In this document: positions 2,225 through 56,042 of the stretch, in pieces | Position numbering within the stretch: the stretch's first letter is position 1 | Layout: every line of letters begins with the position of its first letter | Source of the DNA: an uncultured Ruminococcus sp. | GTDB taxonomy: Bacteria; Bacillota; Clostridia; Oscillospirales; CAG-272 | Direction: 5' to 3' | DNA: 64,000 nt | Assembly (NCBI GenBank): GCA_964457685.1 | Contig: CAYWFS010000001.1 | Coordinates: forward strand, 12,878 to 76,877 | The notes under the pieces: model-generated | What the model was told of the DNA's origin: nothing | The model's database searches: none | Seen by the model: the letters and a program-made list of their open reading frames with translations, nothing else | Translations under genes and position numbers: made by a program

Positions 2225-4216
2225 ATGCAAAGAATAGGTGTATTTGTATGTCACTGCGGTACTAATATCGCAGGTACAGTTGACACAAAAGCCGTAGCGG
2301 AAGCTCTCGGACGTGAACAGTGCGTCGTATTCTCTACGGACTATACATATATGTGTTCCGAAGCAGGTCAGAACCTCATTAAGGACACAATAAAGAATGA
2401 AAAGCTTACAGGAATCGTAGTATGCTCCTGCTCTCCGAGAATGCATGAGGCTACATTCCGTAAAACAGCCGCTGCCGCAGGTCTCAACCCCTACATGGTA
2501 GAGATCGCAAACATTCGTGAGCAGTGCTCCTGGATTCACAAGAACATGGCGGAAGCTACCGAAAAGGCTATAATCCTCGGTCGTGCCGCTATCGCAAAGG
2601 TACTTCTCAATACTCCTCTTACAGCAGGTGAAAGCCCCGTTGTAAAGAGAGCTCTCGTTATCGGCGGTGGTATTGCCGGTATCCAGACAGCTCTCGATAT
2701 CGCAGAAGCAGGCTTTGAAGTAGATATAGTTGAAAAGAAGCCCACTATCGGCGGTAAGATGACCCAGATAGACAAAACCTTCCCGACTCTTGACTGTGCA
2801 GCTTGTATCCTCACTCCTAAGATGGTTGACTGTGCTCAGAACGAGAAGATTAAAATCTACTCCTACAGTGAAGTTGAGTCCGTATCCGGATTCGTTGGTA
2901 ACTTCTCTGTAAAAATCAAGAGAAAAGCAAGATTTGTTGACGAAACAAAGTGTACAGGCTGCGGTCTTTGTACAGAAAAATGCCCGATGAAGAACGTACC
3001 GAACGAATTCAACCTCGGTATGGATAACCGTCGTGCAATCTATATTCCTTTCGCTCAGGCTGTTCCGAAGGTTGCTACAATCGACCCCGATCATTGTAAT
3101 ATGCTCAAGAACGGCAAGTGCGGTGTTTGCTCCAAGGTATGCTCTGCCGGTGCTATCGACTATAAGCAGACAGATACATACGTTGAAGAAAAGTACGGTG
3201 CTATCGTAGTTGCTACCGGCTTCAACCCCATTGACGTTTCCAAGTACGGCGAATATGCTTACAACGAATCCAAGGACGTTGTTACATCCCTTGAACTCGA
3301 AAGACTTATGAACGCCGCAGGTCCTACATCCGGTACTCTCCTCAGACCCTCCGACGGTAAGCATCCTCACACAATAGTATTCGTACAGTGCGTAGGCTCC
3401 AGATGCACACCTGAAAGAGGTAAGCAGTACTGCTCCAAGATTTGCTGTATGTATACCGCAAAGCATGCTATGCTTATCCGTGAAAAGTACCCCGATACAG
3501 AGGTTTATGTATTCTATATAGACGTTCGTACTCCCGGTAAGAGCTTCGATGAATTCTACCGCAGAGCAGTTGAAGATTTCGGCGTTCACTATATCAAGGG
3601 TGCTGTAGGTAAGGTATCTCCTCTGGCTGACGGTACTCTCGATGTTCAGGCTTCCGACCTCATTATGAACGAACAGCTTCACGTTAAGGCGGATATGGTA
3701 GTTCTCGCAGCTGCTATCGAACCCGATAAGTCCGCACGTCCTCTCGCAACAAAGCTCACAGCTTCCATGGATACAAACGACTTCTTCACCGAAGCACATC
3801 CGAAGCTCAGACCTGTTGAATCTCCCACAGCCGGTGTATTCCTCTCCGGTGTATGCCAGGGACCGAAGGATATTCCCGAAACAGTAGCTCAGGCAAGTGC
3901 TTGTGCCGCTAAGGTTATCGGACTCCTCGTTAAGGATAAGCTCACCTGCAACCCGTGCGTAGCTCATTCCAATGAGAATATGTGTAACGGATGCTCGCAG
4001 TGTGCTAATGTTTGCCCGTACGGTGCAATTACCTATGTTGAAAAGGAATTCAGAATGCCCGACAGAACGACCAAGATCAGACGTGTTGCAAGCGTTAACC
4101 CCGCAGTATGCCAGGGTTGTGGTGCTTGTACCGTTACTTGCCCGTCCGGAGCTATGGACCTCTTCGGATTCTCTAACAACCAGATCATGGCGGAGGTAGA
4201 CGCAATATGCAAATGA
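2225..4216 (+). CDS. HdrA-like FAD-dependent iron-sulfur flavoprotein (the bifurcating-type subunit of heterodisulfide reductases)
   Basis: 663 aa. N-terminal Cys cluster (CHCGTN), dinucleotide fold VIGGGIAGIQTALDIAEAG, and four ferredoxin motifs (CTGCGLCTEKCP, CGVCSKVCSAGA, CNGCSQCANVCPYGA, CQGCGACTVTCPSGA). Confidence 0.85.
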   Translation: MQRIGVFVCHCGTNIAGTVDTKAVAEALGREQCVVFSTDYTYMCSEAGQNLIKDTIKNEKLTGIVVCSCSPRMHEATFRKTAAAAGLNPYMVEIANIREQCSWIHKNMAEATEKAIILGRAAIAKVLLNTPLTAGESPVVKRALVIGGGIAGIQTALDIAEAGFEVDIVEKKPTIGGKMTQIDKTFPTLDCAACILTPKMVDCAQNEKIKIYSYSEVESVSGFVGNFSVKIKRKARFVDETKCTGCGLCTEKCPMKNVPNEFNLGMDNRRAIYIPFAQAVPKVATIDPDHCNMLKNGKCGVCSKVCSAGAIDYKQTDTYVEEKYGAIVVATGFNPIDVSKYGEYAYNESKDVVTSLELERLMNAAGPTSGTLLRPSDGKHPHTIVFVQCVGSRCTPERGKQYCSKICCMYTAKHAMLIREKYPDTEVYVFYIDVRTPGKSFDEFYRRAVEDFGVHYIKGAVGKVSPLADGTLDVQASDLIMNEQLHVKADMVVLAAAIEPDKSARPLATKLTASMDTNDFFTEAHPKLRPVESPTAGVFLSGVCQGPKDIPETVAQASACAAKVIGLLVKDKLTCNPCVAHSNENMCNGCSQCANVCPYGAITYVEKEFRMPDRTTKIRRVASVNPAVCQGCGACTVTCPSGAMDLFGFSNNQIMAEVDAICK

Positions 4217-45590: not shown

Positions 45591-45989
45591 ATGAGAGGAA
45601 GAAGAAAGACAGTTAAGATATCCGAGGCTGAGTGGAGCGTTATGAAAGTTCTTTGGGACGGCTGTGAAAAAAGCGGCAGAGGTCTTACTCTCGGTGAAAT
45701 AGTACAGGAAATCGGTGAAGCTGCCGATTGGACAAGCACTACCATAAGAACCCTTGTAATCAGACTTTCCGATAAGGGAGCAGTGGATATTGACAAATCT
45801 ACGGGAATATATAAGTATTCACCGAAGCTTTTAAAGTCGGATTGCGTAAAATACGAGGTTGATTCCTTTGTGGAGCGTGTGTTTGACAACTGCACCTACA
45901 GCCTTATGGCAACTCTTTGCCGTGAAGGAAAGCTTACCAAAAAGGAAAAAGAAGATATTATCAATATTCTCAGCGATATCGAAGACTGA
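45591..45989 (+). CDS. BlaI/MecI/CopY-family transcriptional repressor
   Basis: 132 aa with the N-terminal ISEAEWSVMKVLWD winged-helix signature. Confidence 0.85.
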   Translation: MRGRRKTVKISEAEWSVMKVLWDGCEKSGRGLTLGEIVQEIGEAADWTSTTIRTLVIRLSDKGAVDIDKSTGIYKYSPKLLKSDCVKYEVDSFVERVFDNCTYSLMATLCREGKLTKKEKEDIINILSDIED

Positions 45990-45997
45990 AGCTTAGT

Positions 45998-48346
45998 ATG
46001 ACAGAATTTTTAATTCTGCTTTTGATGCAGGTCACGGTGTTTTCGTCTGTGACTGCTATTGTAATTATCGCCGTTAAGCAAATTTTTAAATGCAGAATAC
46101 CACCCGGCATTGGAATGGTCATGTGGGTGGTTCTTTTGCTACGCTTAATATGCCCCACGTTCCCCGAAAGCAGAATATCGGTATATAATCTTATTCCTGC
46201 GGGACGTGAGATAATGTACACGCTTACAAACGATATTGAGGACGATATAAGTGCGAGAGAATCGGAAATAAAGGAAAAGGATAACCCTTACGTCATTATT
46301 ACCGATACAGAGTCGGAAAGCAACGAAACCGAAATAGCGGAGAATTATTCTTCCCCCGTAACTCTCGGTGAGTATTTCGTGAACGATATAGGTGATGAAG
46401 CGGAACTTAAAGCATATAATATCGACAAGGCACTTCTCGTTGCGTATGCTGTCGGAGTTGCAGTCTGCTTTGTCGTGAATTCGTATATATACATCCGTGT
46501 GAAGCACCGCATTTTGAAAAGCTCGGAGCTGTGCATAGACGAAGACATGACGGGACTGTATTTCAAAACAGCGGAAAAACTCGGACTGCGTGGTAAACGA
46601 ATACCGACACTGAGATACGGAAAAGCCGCTATGCTTGTCGGGATATTCTCACCCTCTGTGATAATACCGGAGGACTGCGACAGGAAAGAGGCCTCGTTTG
46701 TGTTCGCACATGAGCTTAGTCATTTCAGATACAATGATAATGCGATAATAGAGTTTTCCACGTTTGTTTCATGCCTTTTCTGGTACAATCCGCTGATTTG
46801 GATAGTGCGAAAAATGCTTAGAGATGATGTGGAAGTGCTGTGCGATTCGAGAACTATAGAATGCTTTTCGTTTTCTTCATCGGAATACGCACGTATGATA
46901 TGCCGTCACTCAATGTATGCTCCCGAATATGTGGCAGGCTGTAATATGTCTGCGGTCGGAAGAAGCCTCAAAACACGTCTCCGCAGTATATCGCATGAAA
47001 AAAACGACAAATTTCTCTCTAAGGCTACGTCCGTGCTGCTTTGTGCGGTGATGATAGCAATATGCCTTACAAATCCTATAATATCACAAAGCAGTGAGTA
47101 CGAGCAGTATATCAAAAACTACTCGGCAGTGACGGGAATAAACAAAAGGTATTTGCAATATTCAAGCAAGGTCAGCGTTTCCGATTACCTGAGAACTGTG
47201 TCGGAGCTTCTCGAAAACAAGATATCCGCCGAACTCAGAAGCAAGATAGGTAACGGTAGCCTTGAAAGATTCAAGAGAATTGTTCTCGGATGTGAATATA
47301 TAGAAAACGATATAAAAGGTTTTGTGAAAGAGCTTAAAAGTGATGACATTCTGAGTGTAAAAAGCTGTGCCGTCATTGACGAATGTATAGTTACTATACT
47401 CAGTGACGGAACTCGGTCGGATAAAGAGCTTTCACTTCTTCCGAAATACATTTCAACCGATGCTATGAACGAGCTTGCTGAGGTTCTGTCAGAGGATGAG
47501 ATGGAAGACATCATGATGTGGTACAACAAGGGTGTGGAGGGAGCCGATGTGTCGTTTGAGCGGTATTATACCCCCGCAATGATGGAGCTGATACTCGACA
47601 GAATAAACGACGACTGGTCAAAACGAAAATTTCATGATTTCTATACCGAAATTGAAGTCTCGGGACTTGAAAAAGTCGAATACAGTGAGGAAATACTGAA
47701 TATCGGCAAATTCGTGAAAAACGAAAGCTCATTCTATATTATAGACCCGGAGATTACTCCTTTTGAGGAAACCACACTCAGACACATTCTCTCAGCGGCT
47801 CAGGCAGGGCAGAGAAGCGATGTTTATTACCGCAAGGATGTGGAAGACGGTTGTAAAGCTGAGACGGCTGAAAGGCTTTTTGAAAGCAGAGGATACAGCG
47901 TGTCCGGTATGCTTGAGGGATATGCGGAAATCGGCGAAACAGCTTACGAATATCTGACGGCTTCGGATTGTTTTATATTAAGCTATGCTGATATGCAAAA
48001 GCTTGAAAACAGACTTGAAGGAAGCGGATATTCTCTTGTCGATTGCTATGACCGGCTGTCCGATGATGACGGAACACCGACAGGGTATTGCATTCTTCGA
48101 AGTGAGGAAGAAATCGCAGACGCTATCGGGTATTTGAATCTTATGACATATACCACGGTGAACGATGACATTCCCGTTATTCTTGATATATCCGAGAAAT
48201 ATCTCCGCAGTGCAATAGAGGATGTATACCGTCTCGGACTTATTGAAGCGGAGGACGGAGTGATAGAGTCGCGTGAAAATATAAGTCTTGCACAAAGCAT
48301 TGCATATGCTTACAGAATAGTTACATATGCCGTGAATCTCCACTGA
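45998..48346 (+). CDS. BlaR1/M56-family membrane metalloprotease sensor with a C-terminal domain of about 440 aa and unknown type
   Basis: 782 aa with N-terminal TM helices and the HExxH motif FAHELSHF. I could not recognise an SxxK penicillin-binding motif in the C-terminal domain. Confidence 0.75.
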   Translation: MTEFLILLLMQVTVFSSVTAIVIIAVKQIFKCRIPPGIGMVMWVVLLLRLICPTFPESRISVYNLIPAGREIMYTLTNDIEDDISARESEIKEKDNPYVIITDTESESNETEIAENYSSPVTLGEYFVNDIGDEAELKAYNIDKALLVAYAVGVAVCFVVNSYIYIRVKHRILKSSELCIDEDMTGLYFKTAEKLGLRGKRIPTLRYGKAAMLVGIFSPSVIIPEDCDRKEASFVFAHELSHFRYNDNAIIEFSTFVSCLFWYNPLIWIVRKMLRDDVEVLCDSRTIECFSFSSSEYARMICRHSMYAPEYVAGCNMSAVGRSLKTRLRSISHEKNDKFLSKATSVLLCAVMIAICLTNPIISQSSEYEQYIKNYSAVTGINKRYLQYSSKVSVSDYLRTVSELLENKISAELRSKIGNGSLERFKRIVLGCEYIENDIKGFVKELKSDDILSVKSCAVIDECIVTILSDGTRSDKELSLLPKYISTDAMNELAEVLSEDEMEDIMMWYNKGVEGADVSFERYYTPAMMELILDRINDDWSKRKFHDFYTEIEVSGLEKVEYSEEILNIGKFVKNESSFYIIDPEITPFEETTLRHILSAAQAGQRSDVYYRKDVEDGCKAETAERLFESRGYSVSGMLEGYAEIGETAYEYLTASDCFILSYADMQKLENRLEGSGYSLVDCYDRLSDDDGTPTGYCILRSEEEIADAIGYLNLMTYTTVNDDIPVILDISEKYLRSAIEDVYRLGLIEAEDGVIESRENISLAQSIAYAYRIVTYAVNLH

Positions 48347-48353
48347 ATAAAAA

Positions 48354-48418
48354 TAAAAACGTCTTTTGATTTTTCGATGTGACCTTTTGGTGTACATCTA
48401 TCAGAAGACGTTTTTTTA
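48354..48418. terminator. Bidirectional terminator between the blaR1-like gene and lysR
   Basis: ACGTCTTTTGAT (48359-48370) pairs with ATCAGAAGACGT (48400-48411) with one mismatch, flanked by A- and T-runs. Confidence 0.75.
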
Positions 48419-48433
48419 GTTGATTTTTGTTTT

Positions 48434-49342
48434 TTATTGGATGGTTTCTCTGAGAAGTCGCATGAATCTGCGAGCGTCGTCACTGAGTCCGAGGTCAACT
48501 CTGTTTATAACAACAACGGAATAAATATCGGACGAGTTCATCTTGAGCGATACTACACTTCCGTTTGTGTTAAGATCGGAGGACATGATTCCGGTGCCGA
48601 TAGTGTAGCTGTCTGTGCTGATGAGCAGGTTCATAAGAGTAGCTCTGTCGTTGATTCTTATGAGACGGCTTGCACGGTTGTTTTCAACAAGCTCCTCGGT
48701 AAATTCGATGGGACCTGTCTCTCCCTGGTCGTAAGTGATGTAGGGATAGTCACTGAGATCGTCAAAGGTAATAAGCTGAGACTTTGCGGTAAGAGGATGA
48801 TTCTTGCCGACGAATACATACGGAGTCGTTTCGAGAAGCTCATGGTATTCAAGACCGCTTCTGCGGAGATAACGCTCCATATAGACTCCCCTTGCTGCCT
48901 TGGAATAAGCGAGGACTCCGATGTCGGAACGCATATTCACAACATCGCTTATAACCTCTGCTGTTTTTGCTTCCTTTATGGAGAGGTTGTATTCTTCACC
49001 AAACTCGGACATGAATTTGACAAAAGCGGCAGTAACAAAGTCGTAATGCTGTGATGATACGGAGAAGTTGCGGACGTTTCTTACGTTCTCGTTGTCGTAG
49101 CGTTCAAGGATTATCTCGTACTGTGCAATGAGCTGACGGGCATAGCGAATGAATTCCGCACCGTCACGTGTAATCTTAACGCCCTTGTTAGAGCGGTCGA
49201 AAATGTGAACGCTGAATTCTTCTTCAAGCTCCTTGAGTGCAGAGGAAAGACTTGCCTGAGATACGCCGAGAACCTTTGCAGCTTCGTTCATAGAGCCGCA
49301 GCGTGCGATAGCGAGAGTGTATTTACATTGCTGTAGAGTCAT
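48434..49342 (-). CDS. LysR-family transcriptional regulator
   Basis: 302 aa with N-terminal HTH MTLQQCKYTLAIARCGSMNEAAKVLGVSQASLSSALKELE. Confidence 0.85.
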   Translation of the reverse strand: MTLQQCKYTLAIARCGSMNEAAKVLGVSQASLSSALKELEEEFSVHIFDRSNKGVKITRDGAEFIRYARQLIAQYEIILERYDNENVRNVRNFSVSSQHYDFVTAAFVKFMSEFGEEYNLSIKEAKTAEVISDVVNMRSDIGVLAYSKAARGVYMERYLRRSGLEYHELLETTPYVFVGKNHPLTAKSQLITFDDLSDYPYITYDQGETGPIEFTEELVENNRASRLIRINDRATLMNLLISTDSYTIGTGIMSSDLNTNGSVVSLKMNSSDIYSVVVINRVDLGLSDDARRFMRLLRETIQ

Positions 49343-49383
49343 TGTGTACCCCCATTGTTTGAATGTTGATTTGCCTCAAATAT

Positions 49384-49412
49384 ATAATACCATAAAAATC
49401 GCGTTTTGTAAA
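49384..49412 (-). promoter_or_regulatory. Candidate promoter of the lysR gene
   Basis: Read on the minus strand: TTTACA (49412-49407), a 17-nt spacer, then TATTAT (49389-49384), with TGG just upstream of the -10. Confidence 0.5.
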
Positions 49413-49472
49413 CAAAAAACTTTCGCTCAGTTATAGAGAAAACTTAGGCATTGTTGACAAATTATAAAACAA

Positions 49473-49519
49473 GAACCGAATCTCCGAGGATTTTCGGCAT
49501 AATTCGGCTCTCTTTTTTT
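49473..49519. terminator. Hairpin terminator separating the repeat array / GH43 operon from lysR
   Basis: GAACCGAAT (49473-49481) pairs with ATTCGGCTC (49502-49510) with one mismatch. A T-run follows on the plus strand; TTGTTTTAT follows on the minus strand. Confidence 0.55.
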
Positions 49520-49576
49520 GTCAAATTTTGCGTTCTTCACCCGATTTTGCTCGGATGAGAAAAAATATCATAAGTT

Positions 49577-49991
49577 GGACGGTTGTCTTGATTATTCAGC
49601 TGAATTATATTCCCACATCCGGGTTAGTTTAAACATAGGAGAATTTGTCCGAAAGGATAAATTCTCGAGAGTGGGATGGTTGACTGAATTATTCAGCTGA
49701 ATTATATTCCCACATCCGGGTTAGGTAATCCATAGGAGAATTTGTCCGAAAGGATAAATTCTCAGGAGTGGGACGGTTGTCTTGATTATTCAGCTGAATT
49801 ATATTCCCACATCCGGGTTAGTTTAAACATAGGAGAATTTGTCCGAAAGGATAAATTCTCGAGAGTGGGATGGTTGACTGAATTATTCAGCTGAATTATA
49901 TTCCCACATCCGGGTTAGGTAATCCATAGGAGAATTTGTCCGAAAGGATAAATTCTCAGGAGTGGGACGGTTGTCTTGATTATTCAGCTGA
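49577..49991. repeat. Tandem array of four full 97-bp units (A-B-A-B; the 194-bp A+B block is duplicated perfectly; A and B differ at 10 of 97 positions) plus a partial fifth unit that forms the 3' end of the GH43 gene
   Basis: Units occupy 49577-49673 (A), 49674-49770 (B), 49771-49867 (A) and 49868-49964 (B). Positions 49965-49991 are identical to the first 27 nt of unit A. Compared by eye, base by base. Confidence 0.95.
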
Positions 49992-50894
49992 GGAGTATTC
50001 CCACTCGGATGTCATCTTTACGGGAATGATATTTCCGTTTTCATCGAGATCCATTTTCTCAATGCAAAGGAAGCGGGCGTTTCCGTCGTTTATTTCGGGA
50101 GAGTGACGGTGATATACCATAAGATACCTGTCATCCTCGGGAATGTGGAGGAAACCGTTGTGTCCGGGTCCGTTTGCAACAGTGCTGTCTCCCGTTTCGA
50201 GAATTGTAGATGCTGTCTTGAACGGTCCCCACGGCTTGTCTGCAATGCAGGTGTTAACTCTGTAGGTTCCGTTAGTCCAGCAACCCGAGGACCACATGAA
50301 ATAGTACTTGCCGTCACGCTTCATCATGCACGGACCTTCAACATAGTCGGGAGGGGTTATTTCCTTAAAGGTTTCACCATCTTCAAACGGAACAAATCCT
50401 GTCATTTCATCGTTCATTTTGCAGATGTTGCAGTGACCCCAGCCGCCGTAGTAAAGATACATCTGACCGTCGTCATCCTTGAAAAGATGTGCGTCTATCG
50501 GCTGTGCTCCGTTGTGGAATTCTCCTACAAGAGGCTTGTCGAGAAGTGCCTTGAACGGACCTGTGGGACTGTCGGAAACAGCTATTTCAAGTCCGCCTAC
50601 CTCGCTGAGATGAGGAATATCGTTTGAAGCGAAGACGTAATAATACTTTCCGTCCTTTTCTTCAATAGTCGGAGCCCAAATAGCTGCCTTTGCCCACGGA
50701 AAACCGTCCATGTCGATTATGTTTTCAACAAGCTCCCAGTTTTCGAGGTCTGAAGAAACAAAGCAGGAGTGGTTGTGCTGCTCCTTAAACGGCTTTGAGT
50801 GAGTTACATAAATGTAGTACTTGCCGTTGTAATAGCGTGCTTCCGGGTCGGCATACCAACCGTCGCTTATAGGATTTGTAACATGAAATTTCAT
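49980..50894 (-). CDS. Glycoside hydrolase family 43 (beta-xylosidase / alpha-L-arabinofuranosidase-like)
   Basis: 304 aa with a five-bladed-propeller GH43 pattern (GWYADPEARYYNGKYYIY, WAPTIEEKDGKYYY, EGPCMMKRDGKYYFMWS). Confidence 0.85.
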   Translation of the reverse strand: MKFHVTNPISDGWYADPEARYYNGKYYIYVTHSKPFKEQHNHSCFVSSDLENWELVENIIDMDGFPWAKAAIWAPTIEEKDGKYYYVFASNDIPHLSEVGGLEIAVSDSPTGPFKALLDKPLVGEFHNGAQPIDAHLFKDDDGQMYLYYGGWGHCNICKMNDEMTGFVPFEDGETFKEITPPDYVEGPCMMKRDGKYYFMWSSGCWTNGTYRVNTCIADKPWGPFKTASTILETGDSTVANGPGHNGFLHIPEDDRYLMVYHRHSPEINDGNARFLCIEKMDLDENGNIIPVKMTSEWEYSSAE

Positions 50895-50915
50895 ATCGTT
50901 TTCTCCCTCAAAAGC

Positions 50916-52199
50916 TTATGCCTCAACTCCTGCGTATGCGAGAAGTCTCTTTTCTGCTGCGGGACACCAGAGATCTCCTGCTTCCTTGCAAAGCTTGTCG
51001 AGGTCTGCATAAAGTGAACCAAGCTCGGTACCCTTGTTTTCTTCAGCAGCCTTGCCGAAGTCTTCAATTGCGGTAAGGGGGAGGTCGACGTGAGTGTAAA
51101 TAAGCTTCTTTGCACCCTTGATTTTGGGAAGATTGAGTGTGGTTTCGGCACAAGCGTTAAGACCGCCTACGTGAGTTACCATTCCTGCGGGATTGATAGC
51201 CTTCTTTTCCATAAGTGCGATGGATTCACGCATATCGTCTGTGTTACCGCCGGATGTGCCTACGATGTGTGTGGAAGCGTAGTGTACGTTGTAGAAGTTG
51301 AACATTGCGGAGAATTCTGTGTTTGTAGGACCGGCAAAGAAGTTGAGACAACCGTCACGAGCAAGAAGTGCGTCGCCAAGCTCAACTACAGGCTTAACGG
51401 GAGCATATACGAATACATCGTTGAAGCCTTCGCCGCCTGTGAGAGAACGGAGATATTCTGCCGGATTTTCAATACCGCTTGTGTTGATGAAACGGAGGTC
51501 AACACCGTATTTCTTTGCGTCCTCGGGGGGAAGAAGCTTTTCGGCTCTCTTGAGTCTGTCTTCGTCAAGGTCTGTTACGATGAGAAGCTTAGGAGCACGA
51601 CCGCCGTGAATAGCATAGTCGGCACATCCGAGACCCATAGCACCGGCACCTGCGAGAATTGCCATGTTACCGCCCTCTACAACACCCATGTCGTGGGAAT
51701 ATACACCGGGCTTTGTGTGGTAGTTAGCGTGGTAGCCGCCTACGATACAGCTCATAGGTTCGGAAAGGCTTCCGTAGAAATATGCGTCCTCGTTGTAGGG
51801 AAGGAGGCAGTCCATGAGCATAACTTCTTCGGGGATGATTACATATTCAGCCGCACCGCCGCAGTACTTATAGGAGTAACCGGGGGAAGCGAGAGAACCC
51901 TTGTAGTTGATGGCAGGCTGGATAACGAACTTGTCTCCTGCCTTGAACTTATCTGCCCACTTTGCACCAACCTGAACGATTTTACCGCAGAATTCGTGAC
52001 CGATGATAACGGGATTTTCTTCGATATCGTCGGGAACTCTCTTGTGGTTGGAACCCTGTGAAGCCGCTTTATAGGATGACATACAAATGCTGTCGGAAAT
52101 GATACAAGCAAGTATCTCGCCGTCTGTGATTTCGGGAAGCTCGATTTCTTCAAGACGAAGATCCATAACGCCGTGAAGTCTTACTGCTCTTGTTTTCAT
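50916..52199 (-). CDS. Zinc-dependent medium-chain dehydrogenase/reductase (sorbose-1-phosphate reductase / polyol dehydrogenase-like)
   Basis: 427 aa with the GHEFCGKIV zinc motif and the Rossmann segment ILAGAGAMGLG. Confidence 0.7.
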   Translation of the reverse strand: MKTRAVRLHGVMDLRLEEIELPEITDGEILACIISDSICMSSYKAASQGSNHKRVPDDIEENPVIIGHEFCGKIVQVGAKWADKFKAGDKFVIQPAINYKGSLASPGYSYKYCGGAAEYVIIPEEVMLMDCLLPYNEDAYFYGSLSEPMSCIVGGYHANYHTKPGVYSHDMGVVEGGNMAILAGAGAMGLGCADYAIHGGRAPKLLIVTDLDEDRLKRAEKLLPPEDAKKYGVDLRFINTSGIENPAEYLRSLTGGEGFNDVFVYAPVKPVVELGDALLARDGCLNFFAGPTNTEFSAMFNFYNVHYASTHIVGTSGGNTDDMRESIALMEKKAINPAGMVTHVGGLNACAETTLNLPKIKGAKKLIYTHVDLPLTAIEDFGKAAEENKGTELGSLYADLDKLCKEAGDLWCPAAEKRLLAYAGVEA

Positions 52200-52226
52200 A
52201 TTTAATCTCCTTGTGGATTGATTTTT

Positions 52227-53234
52227 TTACTTTCTTTTGGGCTGAGTGAAGCCTATCTTACGTCTTACCTTTGACATTGTTCTTTCAGCGTCTCTTGCTG
52301 CCTGCTCGGAACCATTTATCATGATGTCCTCGAGGTATGCTTTGTCTGCGGAAAGTCTTGCAAATTCTGCCTGAACGGGTGCAAGAGCGTCCGCACAGGT
52401 TTCACCTACGGCAAGCTTGAAGTCACCGTAACCCTTGCCCTCGAATTCATGCTCTATTTCCTCCATTGTCTTGCCGGAGAATGCACTGTAGATGGACATA
52501 AGGTTGTTGATACCGTCCTTTCCCTCGGCGTATCTTACTTCGCTGTCGGAGTCGGTAACAGCCTTCTTGAACTTGCGAATGATAACGTCCTTGGGGTCGA
52601 GAATACGGACAACCGCATTTTCGTTTTCATCGGATTTCGACATTTTCTTTGTCGGGTCTGCGAGAGACATAATCTTTGCCGTTGTCTTGGGAATATACGG
52701 TTCGGGAATTACGAATGTGTCACCGTATACGGAGTTGAATCTTGCGGCAACGTCTCGTGTGAGTTCGAGGTGCTGCTTCTGGTCAACGCCGACGGGAACC
52801 ATTTCTGTCTGATAGAGAAGAATATCCGCTACCATGAGAGAGGGATAGGTAAAGAGTCCTGCGTTTACGTTGTCTGCATTCTTTGCGGATTTGTCCTTGA
52901 ACTGTGTCATTCTCGAAAGCTCACCGAACATGGTGTAGCAGTCGATTATCCAACCAAGCTCTGCGTGTGCGGAAACGTGGCTCTGTACGAACAGTGTGTT
53001 CTTTTCGGGGTCAAGACCGCAGGCGATATATAAAGCGAGTGTTTCGTAGGTTCTGCGACGAAGATCTGCGGGAACCTGACGAACGGTGATTGCGTGTTCG
53101 TCAACTACACAGTAGTAGCAATGATAGGTGTCGGAAAAGTCGGAGAAATTTTTGATGGCTCCGAGGTAGTTTCCTATGGTGAGAACTCCCGAGGGCTGAA
53201 CTCCCGAGAATATTACTTTTTTGTCCTTGTACAT
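52227..53234 (-). CDS. trpS: Tryptophan--tRNA ligase
   Basis: 335 aa with FSGVQPSGVLTIGNYLGA (HIGH region) and KMSKS. Confidence 0.9.
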   Translation of the reverse strand: MYKDKKVIFSGVQPSGVLTIGNYLGAIKNFSDFSDTYHCYYCVVDEHAITVRQVPADLRRRTYETLALYIACGLDPEKNTLFVQSHVSAHAELGWIIDCYTMFGELSRMTQFKDKSAKNADNVNAGLFTYPSLMVADILLYQTEMVPVGVDQKQHLELTRDVAARFNSVYGDTFVIPEPYIPKTTAKIMSLADPTKKMSKSDENENAVVRILDPKDVIIRKFKKAVTDSDSEVRYAEGKDGINNLMSIYSAFSGKTMEEIEHEFEGKGYGDFKLAVGETCADALAPVQAEFARLSADKAYLEDIMINGSEQAARDAERTMSKVRRKIGFTQPKRK

Positions 53235-53264
53235 TTTAGCCTCTGTATTGTAAAATATTGTTAA

Positions 53265-54956
53265 TTATAATTCTTTGTATATGCTTTCTCTCGAACGTAT
53301 GGAGCGGAGAGTTTTCATTACGTTGTTTTCATGTCCGAAATAATCGTGAAGCACCATATACTCCCTGTAAAGCTCATTGTATACGACAGAGTTGTGCGGG
53401 TGTGGGCGATATACGACTGAGCTTTCACTGCCCATAGCATTGATTGCGTCTGAAAGTGTGGGATACTCACCCGACGCATATGCCGCACATATTGCAGAGC
53501 CTGTCGCACTTCCGAATGTAGCTCCCGAAACTGAAATCTCCTGTCCGAGAACATCGGCGAATATCTGCATTGTGACGGGATCCTTTGTCGCTATTCCTCC
53601 CGTTGCCGTAATCTGCTCTACCGGAATACCGTGATCTCTGTAGTTTTCGATTATTGTACGACATCCGAATGCGGTAGCCTCGATAATCGCACGGAACATT
53701 TCCTCGGGCTTTGTGTTCAGATTCATTCCGATAAAGAGTCCCGAAAGGTCGGAGTCTACGAGAATACTTCTGTTTCCGTTCCACCAGTCGAGAGCAAGAA
53801 GTCCGCTTTCACCCGGAACGAGCTGTGCCATTTTTTCGACAAGAAGCTTCAGGGGAGAAAGTCCTCTCTCATCTGCTTCTTTTTTGTATTCGGATGGTGT
53901 GAGCTTGTCCGCAAACCAGGCATAGTGGTCTCCGAGACAGCATTGACCTGCTTCATATGCGTAAAATCCGGGAATGTAGCCGTCCTTTACTATTCCGCAA
54001 ATGCCCGGTACGTTTCGTATATCCTCCGACATGAGCATGGTGCAGTTTGACGTACCCATTGCCATGAGCATATGAGCGGAGGAGGTTATTTTTGCGGCAT
54101 ATACTGCGGCATGAGCATCGGCATGATTTACAGTAACGGCACAACCCTCGCACAGTCCCGTGAGCTTTGCGGCAGACGGAGTGATATATCCGGCAAGAGA
54201 TGACGGAGGAAGCATTTTTGCCTTTCCGTGTCCGAGCTTTTCCTCGGGTGCAAACTCAAGTCTCGGGTCAAGTGTACGAAGAAATTCACGACTCGGATAT
54301 TCTCCGTCAACATAAATCGACTTAAAGCCGGCAACTCCAGATGAGCGTGTTTCTTCGCCTGTCAGAAGCCATGTTATCCAGTCTCCTGCTTCAACAAAAC
54401 GGTCTGCGGCATTATATACCTCGGGAGACTCCGAAAGTATTTGCCATATTTTCGGGAGCATCCATTCGCTTTGTATCTCACCGCCGTAAAGGGGAAGCCA
54501 GCTTTCTTCACGCTGTACCGCAAGCTCTGTAATACGGGCGGCATATGCGGAGGAGGAATGATCCTTCCAAAGCTTTACATAAGCATAAGGATTGTCGGCA
54601 AAATTCGGGTCGAAGCACAACGGAGTTTTGTCATCATATACCGGCATAAGCGTGCATACGGTGAAGTCTATGCCGAGTCCGACTACGCTTTCGGGAGAGA
54701 CTTCTCCTTTTTCGAGTACGTCTCGTATAACGGTCGATACAGCGTCAAGGTAATCCTCCGGTGACTGGATTGCCCAGCCGTCGTCGAGAGGTGTTTCCTT
54801 ATCGGCGGAACCATCGGTTGAAATGATACATTCATCCATTACGCCGTGCGGATATTCAAACACAGATACCGCTACAGTATGACCGTCTGATATGCGAACG
54901 AGAACCGCTCTGGCTGACAAAGTGCCGAAGTCGATTCCGATAGTATATTTTTCTAT
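53265..54956 (-). CDS. araB: L-ribulokinase (FGGY family); N-terminus extended to a probable non-canonical ATA start
   Basis: The protein resembles AraB throughout. The conserved N-terminal KYTIGIDFGT (ATPase phosphate-1 motif) is encoded in frame upstream of the ORF-track TTG (54918-54920). An in-frame TAG lies at 54963-54965. Confidence 0.75.
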   Translation of the reverse strand: MEKYTIGIDFGTLSARAVLVRISDGHTVAVSVFEYPHGVMDECIISTDGSADKETPLDDGWAIQSPEDYLDAVSTVIRDVLEKGEVSPESVVGLGIDFTVCTLMPVYDDKTPLCFDPNFADNPYAYVKLWKDHSSSAYAARITELAVQREESWLPLYGGEIQSEWMLPKIWQILSESPEVYNAADRFVEAGDWITWLLTGEETRSSGVAGFKSIYVDGEYPSREFLRTLDPRLEFAPEEKLGHGKAKMLPPSSLAGYITPSAAKLTGLCEGCAVTVNHADAHAAVYAAKITSSAHMLMAMGTSNCTMLMSEDIRNVPGICGIVKDGYIPGFYAYEAGQCCLGDHYAWFADKLTPSEYKKEADERGLSPLKLLVEKMAQLVPGESGLLALDWWNGNRSILVDSDLSGLFIGMNLNTKPEEMFRAIIEATAFGCRTIIENYRDHGIPVEQITATGGIATKDPVTMQIFADVLGQEISVSGATFGSATGSAICAAYASGEYPTLSDAINAMGSESSVVYRPHPHNSVVYNELYREYMVLHDYFGHENNVMKTLRSIRSRESIYKEL

Positions 54957-54992
54957 GGCGAGCTACCCCACTTTCAAAAATTCTACAACTAC

Positions 54993-55021
54993 ATTATACT
55001 CCATAATTCATATAAAGTCAA
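54993..55021 (-). promoter_or_regulatory. Sigma-A promoter of the araB-trpS-dehydrogenase-GH43 operon
   Basis: Read on the minus strand: TTGACT (55021-55016), a 17-nt spacer, then TATAAT (54998-54993). Confidence 0.65.
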
Positions 55022-55063
55022 TTTCAAAATCGTGCCTAAGCGAAAAATAGTAACATAATTATC

Positions 55064-55092
55064 TTGTATTGTTTATGGATATTTGTTATAAT
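55064..55092 (+). promoter_or_regulatory. Candidate promoter of the 55173 gene
   Basis: TTGTAT (55064-55069), a 17-nt spacer, then TATAAT (55087-55092). Confidence 0.5.
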
Positions 55093-55172
55093 AATATCGT
55101 AATTAAGTGAAATTAACGGTTAATCTCACACGGTATTCTGTGAGAAACGAATGATGAAAGGTATAAAACGAA

Positions 55173-55994
55173 ATGGAAGACAAGGACTTTCACGGCGAAA
55201 ACGAGTCCAATGAAGCGAAAAAGCTTAAAGCACTCGGGCTGAACGATGAAGTAAAAGAGGAAGAACCTCTGAAAATAAACAAGCTTGAGAATTTCTGGTA
55301 TCACTACAGATTCAGAATAATAATGATAGCGGCATTTGCGTTTATCATCACGGTTGCAACGGTGCAGTTTGTCAGCCGACAGAATCCCGATGTCAGTGTG
55401 ATTTACGCAGGACCGCAGTACATAACGGCGAATCAGAACAAGGCTTTCTGTGATGTTCTTCAGGGTATAGCGGAGGACTACAACGATGACGGCAAGACCT
55501 ATGTTCAGCTCAACGATATGATATTCATGAGCGACGATCAGATGGAGGAATATATCGAAAGAGTTGCCGAAGAAGAGGGGGAAACCGCGGCGGTAGATAA
55601 GCTTACAAACAAGCAGACCTACGAAAGATTTACATATGAAATATTCGGAAGCAATTCCAGCATATGTATTCTTGCGGAGGATCAATATGAATCCGTAGCT
55701 TTGGAAAACGGCTTTGTTCCGCTGTCCGAGCTGTTTGACGAGATACCCGACGGTGCGGTAGATGAGTACGGTGTGAGATTTTCCGAAACAAAGCTCTGCA
55801 AGTTCTATGACAGTGCGAAAATATTCCCCGATGACGCTGTTATAGCACTGAGAAGACTTTCCACAATGTCCGTGTTTACTGGAAAGAAAAAAGCCGAGAA
55901 GCAGTACGAGTACAATAAGGATCTCTTTATAAAAATATTGAATTTCGAGTATCCCGAGGGTTATACCGAGACTGAGAGCGATAATATGGACTGA
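55173..55994 (+). CDS. Hypothetical membrane-anchored protein
   Basis: 273 aa with an acidic N-terminus, one TM helix (IIMIAAFAFIITVATVQFV) and an extracytoplasmic domain. No family recognised. Confidence 0.6.
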   Translation: MEDKDFHGENESNEAKKLKALGLNDEVKEEEPLKINKLENFWYHYRFRIIMIAAFAFIITVATVQFVSRQNPDVSVIYAGPQYITANQNKAFCDVLQGIAEDYNDDGKTYVQLNDMIFMSDDQMEEYIERVAEEEGETAAVDKLTNKQTYERFTYEIFGSNSSICILAEDQYESVALENGFVPLSELFDEIPDGAVDEYGVRFSETKLCKFYDSAKIFPDDAVIALRRLSTMSVFTGKKKAEKQYEYNKDLFIKILNFEYPEGYTETESDNMD

Positions 55995-56042
55995 AAAAAT
56001 TCCGTGCGGTTGATATTGCACAGGAAAAAATGGCAATAATAT

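Follow-up and report, generated by a model that had tools for sequence, protein, structure and literature searches.

What is the tandem array that lies at the 3′ end of a GH43 glycoside hydrolase gene, in front of a LysR-family regulator gene; and does it belong to either of them? In the 64,000-nucleotide stretch of DNA analysed here (the ‘window’), four head-to-tail 97-nt units start at positions 49577, 49674, 49771 and 49868, and follow an A-B-A-B pattern in which—counting by start coordinate from 49577—the first unit is identical to the third and the second to the fourth. A and B differ at 10 positions (unit offsets 3, 9, 12, 13, 51, 53, 55, 56, 90 and 91), none of them in the hairpin, in the palindrome or in the TCCCAC/GTGGGA segments, all of which every unit carries. 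An earlier reading, made from the letters of the window alone (the ‘sequence-only reading’), had described just this geometry, with 10 of 97 positions differing outside the embedded elements, and is borne out both by sequence comparison and by TRF; the latter reporting a period of 97 with 4.3 copies (49573–49991) and a period of 194 with 2.2 copies and 99% matches. Exact copies of the 28-nt hairpin number four, at the ‘Y’ coordinates listed below (chance expectation 0); the extended palindrome is also present four times, against 0.04 expected.

The limits first proposed for the array (49577–49964, within the GH43-lysR gap) had to be redrawn, as the repeat continues in register past 49964 up to 50006, inside the GH43 gene (49980..50894, minus strand; Pfam PF04616, E 5e-52). 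The last 27 nt of this gene (49980–50006) form the start of the repeat, such that its last nine codons (EWEYSSAE plus the TAA stop at 49980–49982) are also the beginning of the first unit; the internal units retain decayed GH43 C-terminal codons (MWEYNSAE*). Numbered from the GH43 end along the minus strand, unit 1 spans 49910..50006 (sequence and fold; covariance model R1 match 49929–50006, 81.5 bits), with its X module at 49960–50006—the P1 arms being GAGTGGGA (49999–50006) and TCCCACTC (49960–49967), and the X loop enclosing the GH43 stop codon at 49980–49982—its Y hairpin at 49930–49957 and its linker at 49910–49929. Unit 2 (49813..49909, minus; also supported by fold) comprises X (49863–49909), the Y hairpin (49833–49860) and a linker, and is matched by the model at 49832–49909 with 75.5 bits; unit 3 (49716..49812, minus; likewise supported by fold) comprises X, the Y hairpin (49736–49763) and a linker, matched at 49735–49812 with 75.6 bits; unit 4 (49619..49715, minus) comprises X, the Y hairpin (49639–49666) and a linker, matched at 49638–49715 with 75.5 bits. 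Comparison of the left flank adds a decayed fifth unit (49542..49618, minus; 38.1 bits, E ~9e-6), with a near-intact X (49572–49618) and a degenerate Y. The array is, in sum, four full units, the first X module fused to the 3′ end of GH43, and a decayed fifth.

Taken in the sense direction of the upstream gene, the unit consists of three parts: the X stem-loop, an 8-bp stem (GAGUGGGA/UCCCACUC) around a poorly conserved loop of ~31 nt with a CAGCURA-like core; the Y hairpin, of 10–12 bp; and a linker of ~20 nt. The invariant hairpin of the sequence-only reading—a GAAA loop on a stem of 12 bp, one of them G-U—is indeed present in four exact copies on the plus strand (−15.5 kcal/mol); on the minus strand, which has the sense of the mRNA, the position of the G-U pair becomes an A.C mismatch and the fold drops to −10.3 kcal/mol. 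This asymmetry recurs across the family described below: Y is at least as stable antisense to the gene as on the sense strand in 12/12 variants tested, the conserved mismatch (A.C, C.A or A.A on the sense strand) turning into G.U, U.G or U.U on the antisense, where ~7/11 distinct variants, the divergent phage variant L053 among them, carry a GNRA tetraloop (GAAA, GUAA, GCAA or GAGA). Whole units fold better on the antisense strand by 5–10 kcal/mol, the X stem showing no strand preference, and unit folds have z-scores of −2 to −5.

Among hosts of 43–55% GC, conservation is strong in P1, Y and the linker, with the caveat that our search patterns fixed 19–24 nt and so make P1 and the outer part of Y appear invariant; the weak covariation of the whole unit follows from these near-invariant, pattern-fixed stems. 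In the Y stem, double (compensatory) changes fall at 5/11 pairs, with 92.9% of cells paired against 19–65% in slid controls; the informative covariation being confined to a hand-registered alignment that includes L053. Within that alignment, the Y stem is shown to have been maintained through compensatory changes. Two elements of the sequence-only reading fare less evenly: the perfect 12-bp palindrome ATTCAGCTGAAT is present in each unit of the window but is specific to this variant, the family retaining only its CAGCTRA-like core, and of the two alternative pairings offered for the TCCCAC and GTGGGA segments—unchanged between A and B, as claimed—the family conserves that around the palindrome region, single-copy members having no other option. 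No conserved small ORF was found on either strand, and no internal promoter is shared by the family, those promoter-like sites that occur on the plus strand of the window units being variant-specific; internal promoters were rejected for want of conservation. SECIS-like readthrough of an overlapped UGA was rejected as the downstream frames are not conserved, and a hammerhead-like core as its CUGA motif is not.

Exact 22-mers from the window hairpin found no match in scans of genome and metagenome contigs; the family became detectable only once a second locus, L008, with X-Y-X behind its own GH43 gene, revealed which positions are held in common. A pattern built from features shared by the window and L008 retrieved 17 loci from the metagenome scan, and a pattern for X alone retrieved a phage contig (L053) bearing a 4.2-copy array of period 97. 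Of three viral-contig patterns, two gave no matches, and two further hits of the X-only viral scan (L051 and L052) were rejected as chance matches within phage coding sequence. Model R1 finds all members, at 64–93 bits, and nothing further in the 64 kb window plus ~350 kb of loci. In gut metagenomes the repeat occurs at the ends of ~13 unrelated genes, and in a phage it occurs within one head-gene operon; its density, where measurable, is about one site per >60 kb. Tandem units are head-to-tail direct repeats of period 92–97 in all family arrays, and X loops within one array are 87–100% alike; a CRISPR repeat-spacer array was rejected on these grounds, there being no spacers and the full 97-nt period itself repeating. 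The sequence-only reading had tied its fate to the unit recurring elsewhere and to its stem changing with compensation, and both are what we find.

At low density, the repeat is dispersed over the chromosomes of several uncultured Clostridia of the gut (Oscillospiraceae/Ruminococcaceae-like), and one or more of their phages carry it as well. BLAST of the repeat against plasmid and phage databases returned no match, Rfam 15 no overlap with the array (48000–51500, E up to 10) or with seven other loci (E up to 1), and literature searches on the sequence and on the repeat families of these taxa no description. The family is, apparently, an undescribed two-hairpin element of uncultured gut Clostridia and one phage. 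The sequence-only reading, which did not recognise the unit as any described RNA family or REP/MITE class, is borne out insofar as Rfam is concerned; what it could not place is a member of a dispersed family of REP/BOX/MITE-like kind. At gathering thresholds, the Rfam scan of the whole window reported only a cobalamin riboswitch, elsewhere in the window; no tRNA was found there.

Where does the element sit? In 9/9 resolved contexts it is co-oriented with the upstream gene, whose stop codon overlaps the element or falls within its first 27 nt, at −1, +9, +15 or +24 as counted from where the element starts. The stop overlaps the start (T|GAGTGGG) behind a rubrerythrin, an RlmL-like methyltransferase, a dUTPase, ribosomal protein L1, an unnamed ORF and a phage gene. 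In three further cases, a histidine kinase and both GH43 genes, it falls 9, 15 or 24 nt into the element; the histidine kinase ends ...EWE* and the GH43 of the window ...EWEYSSAE*, in codons derived from the element. A single family site, L021, has no co-oriented gene in front of it. At the level of sequence, the element is thereby shown to adjoin or cover, almost always, the stop codon of an upstream gene of like orientation. Where the sequence beyond it is readable, what comes next is either a separate intrinsic terminator or another gene: gerA, a luxS-like gene or a major head protein gene, with nothing at other sites; the L053 array lies between two co-oriented phage head genes. The flanking genes are housekeeping and functionally unrelated to each other. 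Orientation follows the gene and not the replication fork; GC skew is mixed across loci (in the window the plus strand is leading, and the GH43 operon therefore head-on), and a replication-strand-specific orientation was rejected for this reason.

Comparison with relatives that lack the element is informative here. The empty sites L046 and L047 read TGA|ATAAAAAG...59 nt...ATG, and the filled site L023 reads TGA, then three 97-nt units each ending in TGA, then ATATTTTA...57 nt...ATG; the rubrerythrin relatives L048 and L050 are likewise without the element, the native protein ending ...NY* in 120/120 homologues. Such empty-site comparisons place the putative insertion point exactly behind the stop codon. 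Direct repeats of 3–7 nt, all ending in GA, accompany the element (TGA in L023, TAYTGA in L022, AAAGA in L019 and CATCCGA in the window); they vary in length, and only two loci offer a close empty site for comparison.

Taken together, these observations lead us to regard the array as probably a tandem, slippage-expanded copy of a ~97-bp modular interspersed repeat of REP/BOX/MIRU-like kind, lying in the 3′ UTR of the GH43 operon. Such a repeat would have spread as a non-autonomous mobile or recombinogenic DNA element—its mobility being suggested solely by filled versus empty sites—inserting directly behind ...GA, mostly that of a TGA stop, and leaving a direct repeat of 3–7 nt. Arrays would then grow and shrink by slippage or unequal recombination, the A/B dimer of the window having presumably been duplicated very recently. 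The units would be transcribed within the operon 3′ UTR, their chain of hairpins acting at most as a passive structural barrier that affects 3′-end decay or processing of the upstream mRNA, like REP/BIME and BOX. Several observations count against this. Among the 47 window ORFs scanned, no transposase, RAYT or integrase was found, nor a Y1_Tnp or other transposase domain. The density is low, unlike that of classic REP or MITE families; the direct repeats, being variable at 3–7 nt, could be microhomology instead of true target-site duplications; precision at the stop codon exceeds what passive tolerance of insertions predicts; and an antisense-favoured GNRA hairpin fits poorly with a role for the sense-strand RNA.

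The neighbourhood of the array bears on whether it serves lysR, as an array of dimeric protein sites centred on the palindrome that regulates that gene or is bound by its product—a proposal of the sequence-only reading that has the perfect 12-bp palindrome in each unit, and the position of the array upstream of lysR, in its favour. Downstream of the array, we see an intrinsic terminator of the FGGY kinase-trpS-ADH-GH43 operon (49464..49513, minus), a AGAGAGCCGAAU...AUUCGGUUCUU stem followed by GUUUUAU, whose minus-strand fold (−25.7 kcal/mol, z −4.8) agrees approximately with the terminator formerly placed at 49473–49519, even though a simple terminator scan made no call. Further downstream, outside both array and terminator, is a promoter-like site for lysR (49384..49412, minus; TTTACA, 17 nt, TGnTATTAT), and then the gene itself (48434..49342, minus; Pfam HTH_1 and LysR_substrate), a neighbour and not a part of the element. 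Terminator and promoter thus separate the array from lysR; the orthologous GH43-lysR loci L004 and L005 keep both synteny and the lysR promoter region without the array; no other resolved family site adjoins a LysR gene; and the palindrome is not conserved in the family. We consider this proposal close to refuted and its truth very improbable, the repeat having, we infer, no specific relationship to lysR. Just as improbable is a neutral, recent and local duplication of the GH43 3′ end with its downstream hairpin, or an assembly artefact. The identity of alternate units, the decayed GH43 codons of the internal ones and the collapse or breakage of short-read assemblies at the GH43-lysR array would all be expected of it; the A/B dimer duplication is indeed recent and local. 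The X-Y-linker unit is not, recurring as it does at the ends of ~13 other, unrelated genes as well as in a phage, and both array ends are recovered in an independent sample; for the unit, a local origin is refuted. What persists of the sequence-only reading is its proposal of a repeated structured module, in what is most simply read as the 3′ UTR of the GH43 operon; and its view that the unit is not a simple terminator, as no U-tract follows X or Y in any readable unit. We, too, rejected an intrinsic terminator, given the separate one at ~49464–49513 and the array that lies between the L053 head genes.

Two readings give the hairpins more to do. The unit may be a dedicated cis-acting RNA module tied to translation termination, its position and orientation then being explained by selection: with the X stem starting at the stop codon, a terminating ribosome would have to melt X, and the module might tune termination or recycling, the rescue of ribosomes, coupling with the gene that follows, or decay from the 3′ end. 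The constant co-orientation and stop-codon register of all nine resolved contexts speak for this, as do an orientation that tracks the gene and not the fork, the conservation of P1, Y and linker in hosts of differing GC content, the compensatory changes that preserve Y, and a site between two co-transcribed phage head genes, where the element cannot be a terminator. Yet the host genes are functionally unrelated, one site (L021) stands behind no co-oriented gene, presence or absence in close relatives together with variable copy number is typical of dispensable repeats, and it is the weaker, mismatched form of the hairpin that the sense strand carries; we think such a module unlikely. That last point leads to the converse proposal, in which the antisense (window plus) strand is the one that folds, either as a small GNRA-capped antisense RNA or as a single-stranded DNA hairpin recognised by the enzyme that mobilises the element, a strand-specific recombinase or a transposase of the HUH type. 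The whole of the strand asymmetry in Y and in complete units favours it. Against it, X has no strand preference; no antisense promoter is conserved in the family; in the window, a terminator-like hairpin and a T-run stand in the way of any plus-strand transcript that would enter the array from upstream; the gene-tied orientation, independent of GC skew, argues against a transposon specific to one replication strand; and the ORFs of the window yielded no HUH transposase gene. We judge it improbable.

A further variant goes beyond the interspersed repeat that we prefer, and we hold it to be distinctly unlikely: that the element is a new gene-end-seeking two-hairpin module, which homes to the stop codon in the orientation of the gene and then acts on translation termination or mRNA 3′ ends. 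Homing might proceed by a mechanism that senses the transcript or the terminating ribosome or, alternatively, through a strand-specific recombinase recognising the antisense GNRA-capped hairpin and a ...GA^ target. The 5′ end of the element (GAGTGGGAAT) matches native GH43 C-terminal codons (EWEY), and the element stands in register in two non-sister GH43 lineages; were this variant true, the GAGTGGGAAT/EWEY match, the two GH43 lineages and the phage late operon would be signatures of mechanism and not accidents.

Returning to the interspersed repeat, its resemblance to known systems is one of kind; the family is a new one of a familiar bacterial sort, unusually precise in position. REP/BIME (REPIN) sequences are likewise imperfect palindromic hairpins of transcribed intergenic regions and 3′ UTRs, often clustered and with a conserved irregularity. 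REP/BIME hairpins stall 3′-to-5′ exonucleases and so stabilise upstream mRNA. Proteobacterial REPs, however, are of 20–40 nt with a GTAG-type head, arranged as inverted pairs, present in hundreds per genome and tied to RAYTs, none of which is seen here: the hairpin feet are GAGAATTT and GAGTGGGA, the GTAG head is absent, and units are always direct repeats, unlike the inverted pairs of REPIN/BIME. In Streptococcus pneumoniae, BOX (boxA, a variable number of boxB, boxC), RUP and SPRITE are short modular interspersed repeats with extensive secondary structure, co-transcribed with adjacent genes and judged mostly parasitic; the internal module number of BOX differs from strain to strain, slippage or unequal crossover being the probable cause, and SPRITE is enriched near gene 3′ ends (PMC3049150). 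The likeness to these structured Firmicutes repeats of variable module number is architectural only, and drawn from their description (PMC3049150): there is no sequence relationship to BOX, in which one internal module is reiterated where here it is the whole X-Y-linker unit, and our element starts exactly at the stop codon, at much lower copy density, with a uniform orientation in resolved cases as compared with a strand bias of only ~60% for BOX, RUP and SPRITE (PMC3049150).

MIRUs share with it a size of 40–100 bp, an often tandem and variable copy number, an intergenic, gene-oriented location within operons and codon-level precision with respect to the flanking ORFs; they insert at start codons, with a coupled internal ORF (PMC12548453). 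The MIRU ORF is translationally coupled to the downstream gene, whereas here there is no conserved ORF, the unit being 97 nt (3n+1) with 2/3 frames hitting stops within 30 nt and the third closed in some members (L022); the relation to a downstream start is not fixed, the anchor is the upstream stop codon and the host phylum differs. Like MITEs (Correia/NEMIS, RUP, ERIC and the Rickettsia palindromic elements, reviewed in PMC10969869 and PMC3184786), this is a small, presumably non-autonomous hairpin repeat, in or at gene ends to which it adds a few codons, with filled and empty sites in relatives; unlike them, the full unit has no terminal inverted repeats—it ends GAGTGGGAAT... and ...AAAACCGTT, only X having 8-bp inverted ends—and no known parent IS, and the direct repeats beside it, of 3–7 nt, are not of one fixed length as a target-site duplication would be. 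A structured RNA unit in tandem direct repeats, with a terminator behind them, also recalls ToxI, but ToxI units are of ~34–36 nt, just upstream of a toxN-like toxin gene, and ours of 97 nt, dispersed behind unrelated genes and often single; with no toxin gene present, and LysR as the product of the next gene, a type III antitoxin array was rejected. The likeness to integron attC sites is limited to the stop-codon position, the variable centre and the better folding of the bottom strand; attC was rejected as X ends GAGTGGGAAT and ATCCCACTC, without R''/R' cores (RYYYAAC...GTTRRRY), and the neighbours are housekeeping genes, not cassettes.

In practical terms, model R1 and the X-Y-linker anatomy put a name to a repeat at which short-read assemblies of gut Clostridia break, which rewrites the terminal codons of some genes and which might otherwise be mistaken for a locus-specific regulator. 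Should its precision reflect targeting or a termination-linked function, and not filtering by selection, it would offer a tractable system for how small repeats choose gene ends, as well as for how 3′-UTR hairpins act in Firmicutes. Its variable unit number could also serve as a strain marker. In a near-identical strain (Logan SRR10277277) short-read contigs terminate within the array from both sides, which supports a real repeat without confirming its copy number; as several Logan contigs stop inside arrays, comparisons of copy number are limited. By sequence comparison, then, we have shown a dispersed family whose units lack a U-tract and vary between strains both in number and in X-loop sequence: three units are present in L023 and two in L034, module content differs between L019 and L031 (X-Y versus X-Y-X), and L035 carries a different X loop next to a 99%-identical gene.

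Reading the array in the direction of its neighbouring genes, all of which lie on the minus strand, the order of transcription is FGGY kinase, trpS, zinc alcohol dehydrogenase, GH43 (49980–50894), array and LysR regulator (48434–49342). The A-B-A-B arrangement proposed in the sequence-only reading is borne out: 97-nt units follow one another head-to-tail at 49577, 49674, 49771 and 49868, the first identical to the third and the second to the fourth, with the two types (A and B) differing at ten positions, none of them in the hairpin, the palindrome or the TCCCAC/GTGGGA segments. TRF reports periods of 97 (4.3 copies) and 194 (2.2 copies, 99% matches); there are four occurrences of the 28-nt hairpin and four of the palindrome, where chance would give ~0 of either. 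The repeat does not end at 49964: it runs on in register into GH43, the final 27 nt of which (GAG TGG GAA TAC TCC TCA GCT GAA TAA) form the beginning of a repeat unit, a decayed copy of this gene end (ATG TGG GAA TAT AAT TCA GCT GAA TAA) being kept in the internal units. On the minus strand each unit reads as a stem-loop, X (GAGTGGGA, ~31 nt, then TCCCACTC), a hairpin, Y (GAGAATTT, loop, then AAATTCTC), and a linker of ~20 nt; four such units are succeeded by a fifth X with a degenerate Y (49542–49618), a good minus-strand terminator (~49464–49513) and the lysR promoter. Short-read contigs of a near-identical strain from another sample end in the array interior from both sides, so the repeat is real, its copy number not being thereby confirmed. 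The Logan short-read contigs that end inside arrays are L001 and L035 (at their ends) and L002 (at its start); assembly into MAGs thus probably collapses or drops arrays of this family, which would make them look rarer than they are.

Searching for exact copies of the window's hairpin gave no match elsewhere, and the family was traced through relatives of GH43. In the closest of these with lysR downstream (L004 and L005) we see a short intergenic region and a terminator, with no array; a different GH43 relative, L008, carries X-Y-X with a period of 92 after the gene, its stem arms identical to those of the window and the top of its Y hairpin different and compensated. A pattern of features common to the window and L008 matched 17 metagenome loci, and an X-only pattern led to a phage contig (L053) encoding terminase, portal, connector and major head protein. 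Here, 4.2 copies of 97 nt (2961–3370) lie between an unnamed 161-aa gene, on whose TGA the array begins, and the major head protein gene; the Y stem is divergent in sequence and compensated. R1, our covariance model of the family, scores all these members at 64–93 bits and adds no copy to them from the 64 kb of the window or ~350 kb of related loci, indicating a low density. By name, the relatives are MAGs of Clostridia, Ruminococcus and Oscillospiraceae of ruminant or human gut origin, with host GC contents of 43% to 55%. The element is without a match in Rfam, plasmids or the phage collection, and our literature search found no paper describing it.

Together these loci reveal a dispersed, strain-variable unit, held together by its hairpins and co-oriented with the gene, with a stop codon before it and the remainder of the 3′ region after it. 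Wherever the upstream gene is resolved (a regularity that excludes four unresolved sites), the element shares its orientation and the stop codon falls at or inside the first 27 nt; the exception is L021, where no co-oriented gene precedes the element. The stop overlaps the element start (T/GAGTGGG) in rubrerythrin, an RlmL-like methyltransferase, dUTPase, ribosomal protein L1, an unnamed ORF and the phage gene; it falls at +9 in a histidine kinase, now ending ...NKEWE-stop, at +15 in the GH43 of L008 and at +24 in that of the window. No U-tract is present in the units, and after them comes either a terminator distinct from the element or the next gene. Unoccupied sites in relatives pin down the position: at the methyltransferase locus, TGA/ATAAAAAG...59 nt...ATG when empty becomes TGA[3 x 97 nt, each ending TGA]ATATTTTA...57 nt...ATG when filled. 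Rubrerythrin relatives of 97% identity are likewise without the element, and rubrerythrin homologues natively end ...NY-stop in 120/120. The insertions are flanked by short direct repeats of 3–7 nt, every one ending in GA; a single-copy element in L033 (~835–965) also has the halves of an 8-nt inverted repeat on either side of it (GGTTGACA ... TGTCAACC), as would result from insertion into the loop of an older hairpin.

Units also vary at a single locus, in number (three in L023, two in L034) and in content (X-Y in L019, X-Y-X in L031). After the RlmL-like methyltransferase (protein 99% identical), L035 and L023 differ at about half the positions of the first X loop, with stems and Y unchanged; as far as sequence comparison goes, such a difference suggests that units turn over rapidly or are exchanged from site to site. 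The window's GC skew is positive throughout 1–64000, making the plus strand the leading strand, and the block at 48434–56036 (lysR, GH43, ADH, trpS, kinase and one more ORF) is transcribed head-on to replication. Across loci, skew bears no consistent relation to the element, the orientation of which therefore follows the gene rather than the replication fork.

The GH43 loci present a coincidence. The window's GH43 family natively ends ...MT-x-EWEY..., such that the 3′ end of the gene, GA(A/G)TGGGA(A/G)TA(C/T), mimics the 5′ end of the element, GAGTGGGAAT, and in both the window and L008 the element is in register with the EWEY motif. The two proteins are not sisters, since that of the window groups with the element-free L004; their X loops share 68% identity, the highest of any different-locus pair (others ~50%). 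Homology-assisted insertion, recombinational transfer of a gene end, or an origin of X from the GH43 gene end may each explain this.

The unit folds as the X stem-loop plus the Y hairpin (z-scores of −2 to −5). Of the alternative TCCCAC/GTGGGA helices suggested from the sequence, that spanning the X loop (GAGTGGGA/TCCCACTC) is the conserved one, as single-copy members allow only this pairing; pairing around Y is not a conserved helix. Conservation is lowest in the X loop (~50% identity between loci), where only a CAGCTRA-like core recurs; the perfect 12-bp palindrome is a peculiarity of the window. Covariation over the whole unit is weak, because the stems barely vary and our search patterns fixed them. 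For Y, we aligned nine variants without gaps, the divergent phage version (GAAAATGACTC-TTGC-GAGTCATTTTC) among them: 5/11 pairs show double compensatory changes, so that the stem does not mutate without compensation, and 92.9% of cells are paired, against 19–65% with a slid partner strand. Such compensation fits RNA or DNA, and either strand alike, and cannot discriminate between them. In the linker, the central 9 nt of L053 and L023 are reverse complements (TTGGCTTAA and TTAAGCCAA), a relation that hints either at a third hairpin, small and palindromic, or at a locally inverted stretch.

We consider the element a probable non-autonomous interspersed repeat of REP/BOX/MIRU/MITE type, which would enter directly after ...GA, usually that of a TGA stop codon, and be amplified locally by slippage or unequal recombination, the last such step in the window presumably having been duplication of an A/B dimer; co-transcribed, its hairpins would act at most as passive 3′ UTR barriers. 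That position and orientation instead reflect a real termination-linked RNA function is the main rival, and an unlikely one in our estimation. An antisense RNA or single-stranded DNA has less chance still. It would account for an asymmetry between the strands: in the window, the plus-strand hairpin pairs 12 bp, one of them G-U, under a GAAA loop, and the minus strand, sense for the flanking genes, has an A.C mismatch in place of the G-U; across the family, the gene-antisense strand folds Y no less stably than the sense strand in 12/12 variants tested, one irregular, conserved position is A.C, C.A or A.A in the sense strand and G.U, U.G or U.U in the antisense strand, and the antisense loop is GAAA, GUAA, GCAA or GAGA in ~7/11 distinct variants, L053 counted. 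Against it, we found no antisense-strand promoter conserved in the family, and orientation is not tied to the fork. The earlier suggestion of protein-binding sites serving the adjacent lysR is scarcely credible, failing on synteny and family context: L004 and L005 keep lysR downstream without the array, and the element is not a lysR-specific device. Purely local duplication or an assembly artefact fails on dispersal and is just as improbable.

In architecture and behaviour, the nearest known elements include the pneumococcal BOX and SPRITE (PMC3049150), REP/BIME and MIRU (PMC12548453). Tests of defining sequence and organisation rejected REP, MITE and MIRU as identities for the element, as they did ToxI, CRISPR, attC and a terminator; we class it as a new family within a known kind of element. 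What makes it interesting is its codon-level precision, gene-linked orientation, presence in a phage late operon and the unexplained strand asymmetry.

Elsewhere in the window, a cobalamin riboswitch aptamer (RF00174; 9945–10139, plus strand, 62.5 bits) is directly followed by ORFs without a Pfam match. The trpS gene (tryptophanyl-tRNA synthetase; 52227–53234, in the minus-strand stretch 50916–54920) lies among FGGY kinase, zinc alcohol dehydrogenase and GH43 in an operon of sugar type, an unusual context, and may be a second copy; across the whole window, no T-box scored as high as the Rfam gathering threshold. Back-to-back with the lysR promoter is a plus-strand promoter-like site (TTGAAT, 18 nt, TATAAT; 49359–49388), followed on the same strand by a terminator-like hairpin and T-run (49473–49519); from sequence, the two could bound a short divergent transcript. 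Directly adjoining lysR is a plus-strand pair at 45591–48346, comprising a BlaI-like repressor (Penicillinase_R) and a BlaR1-like M56 sensor.
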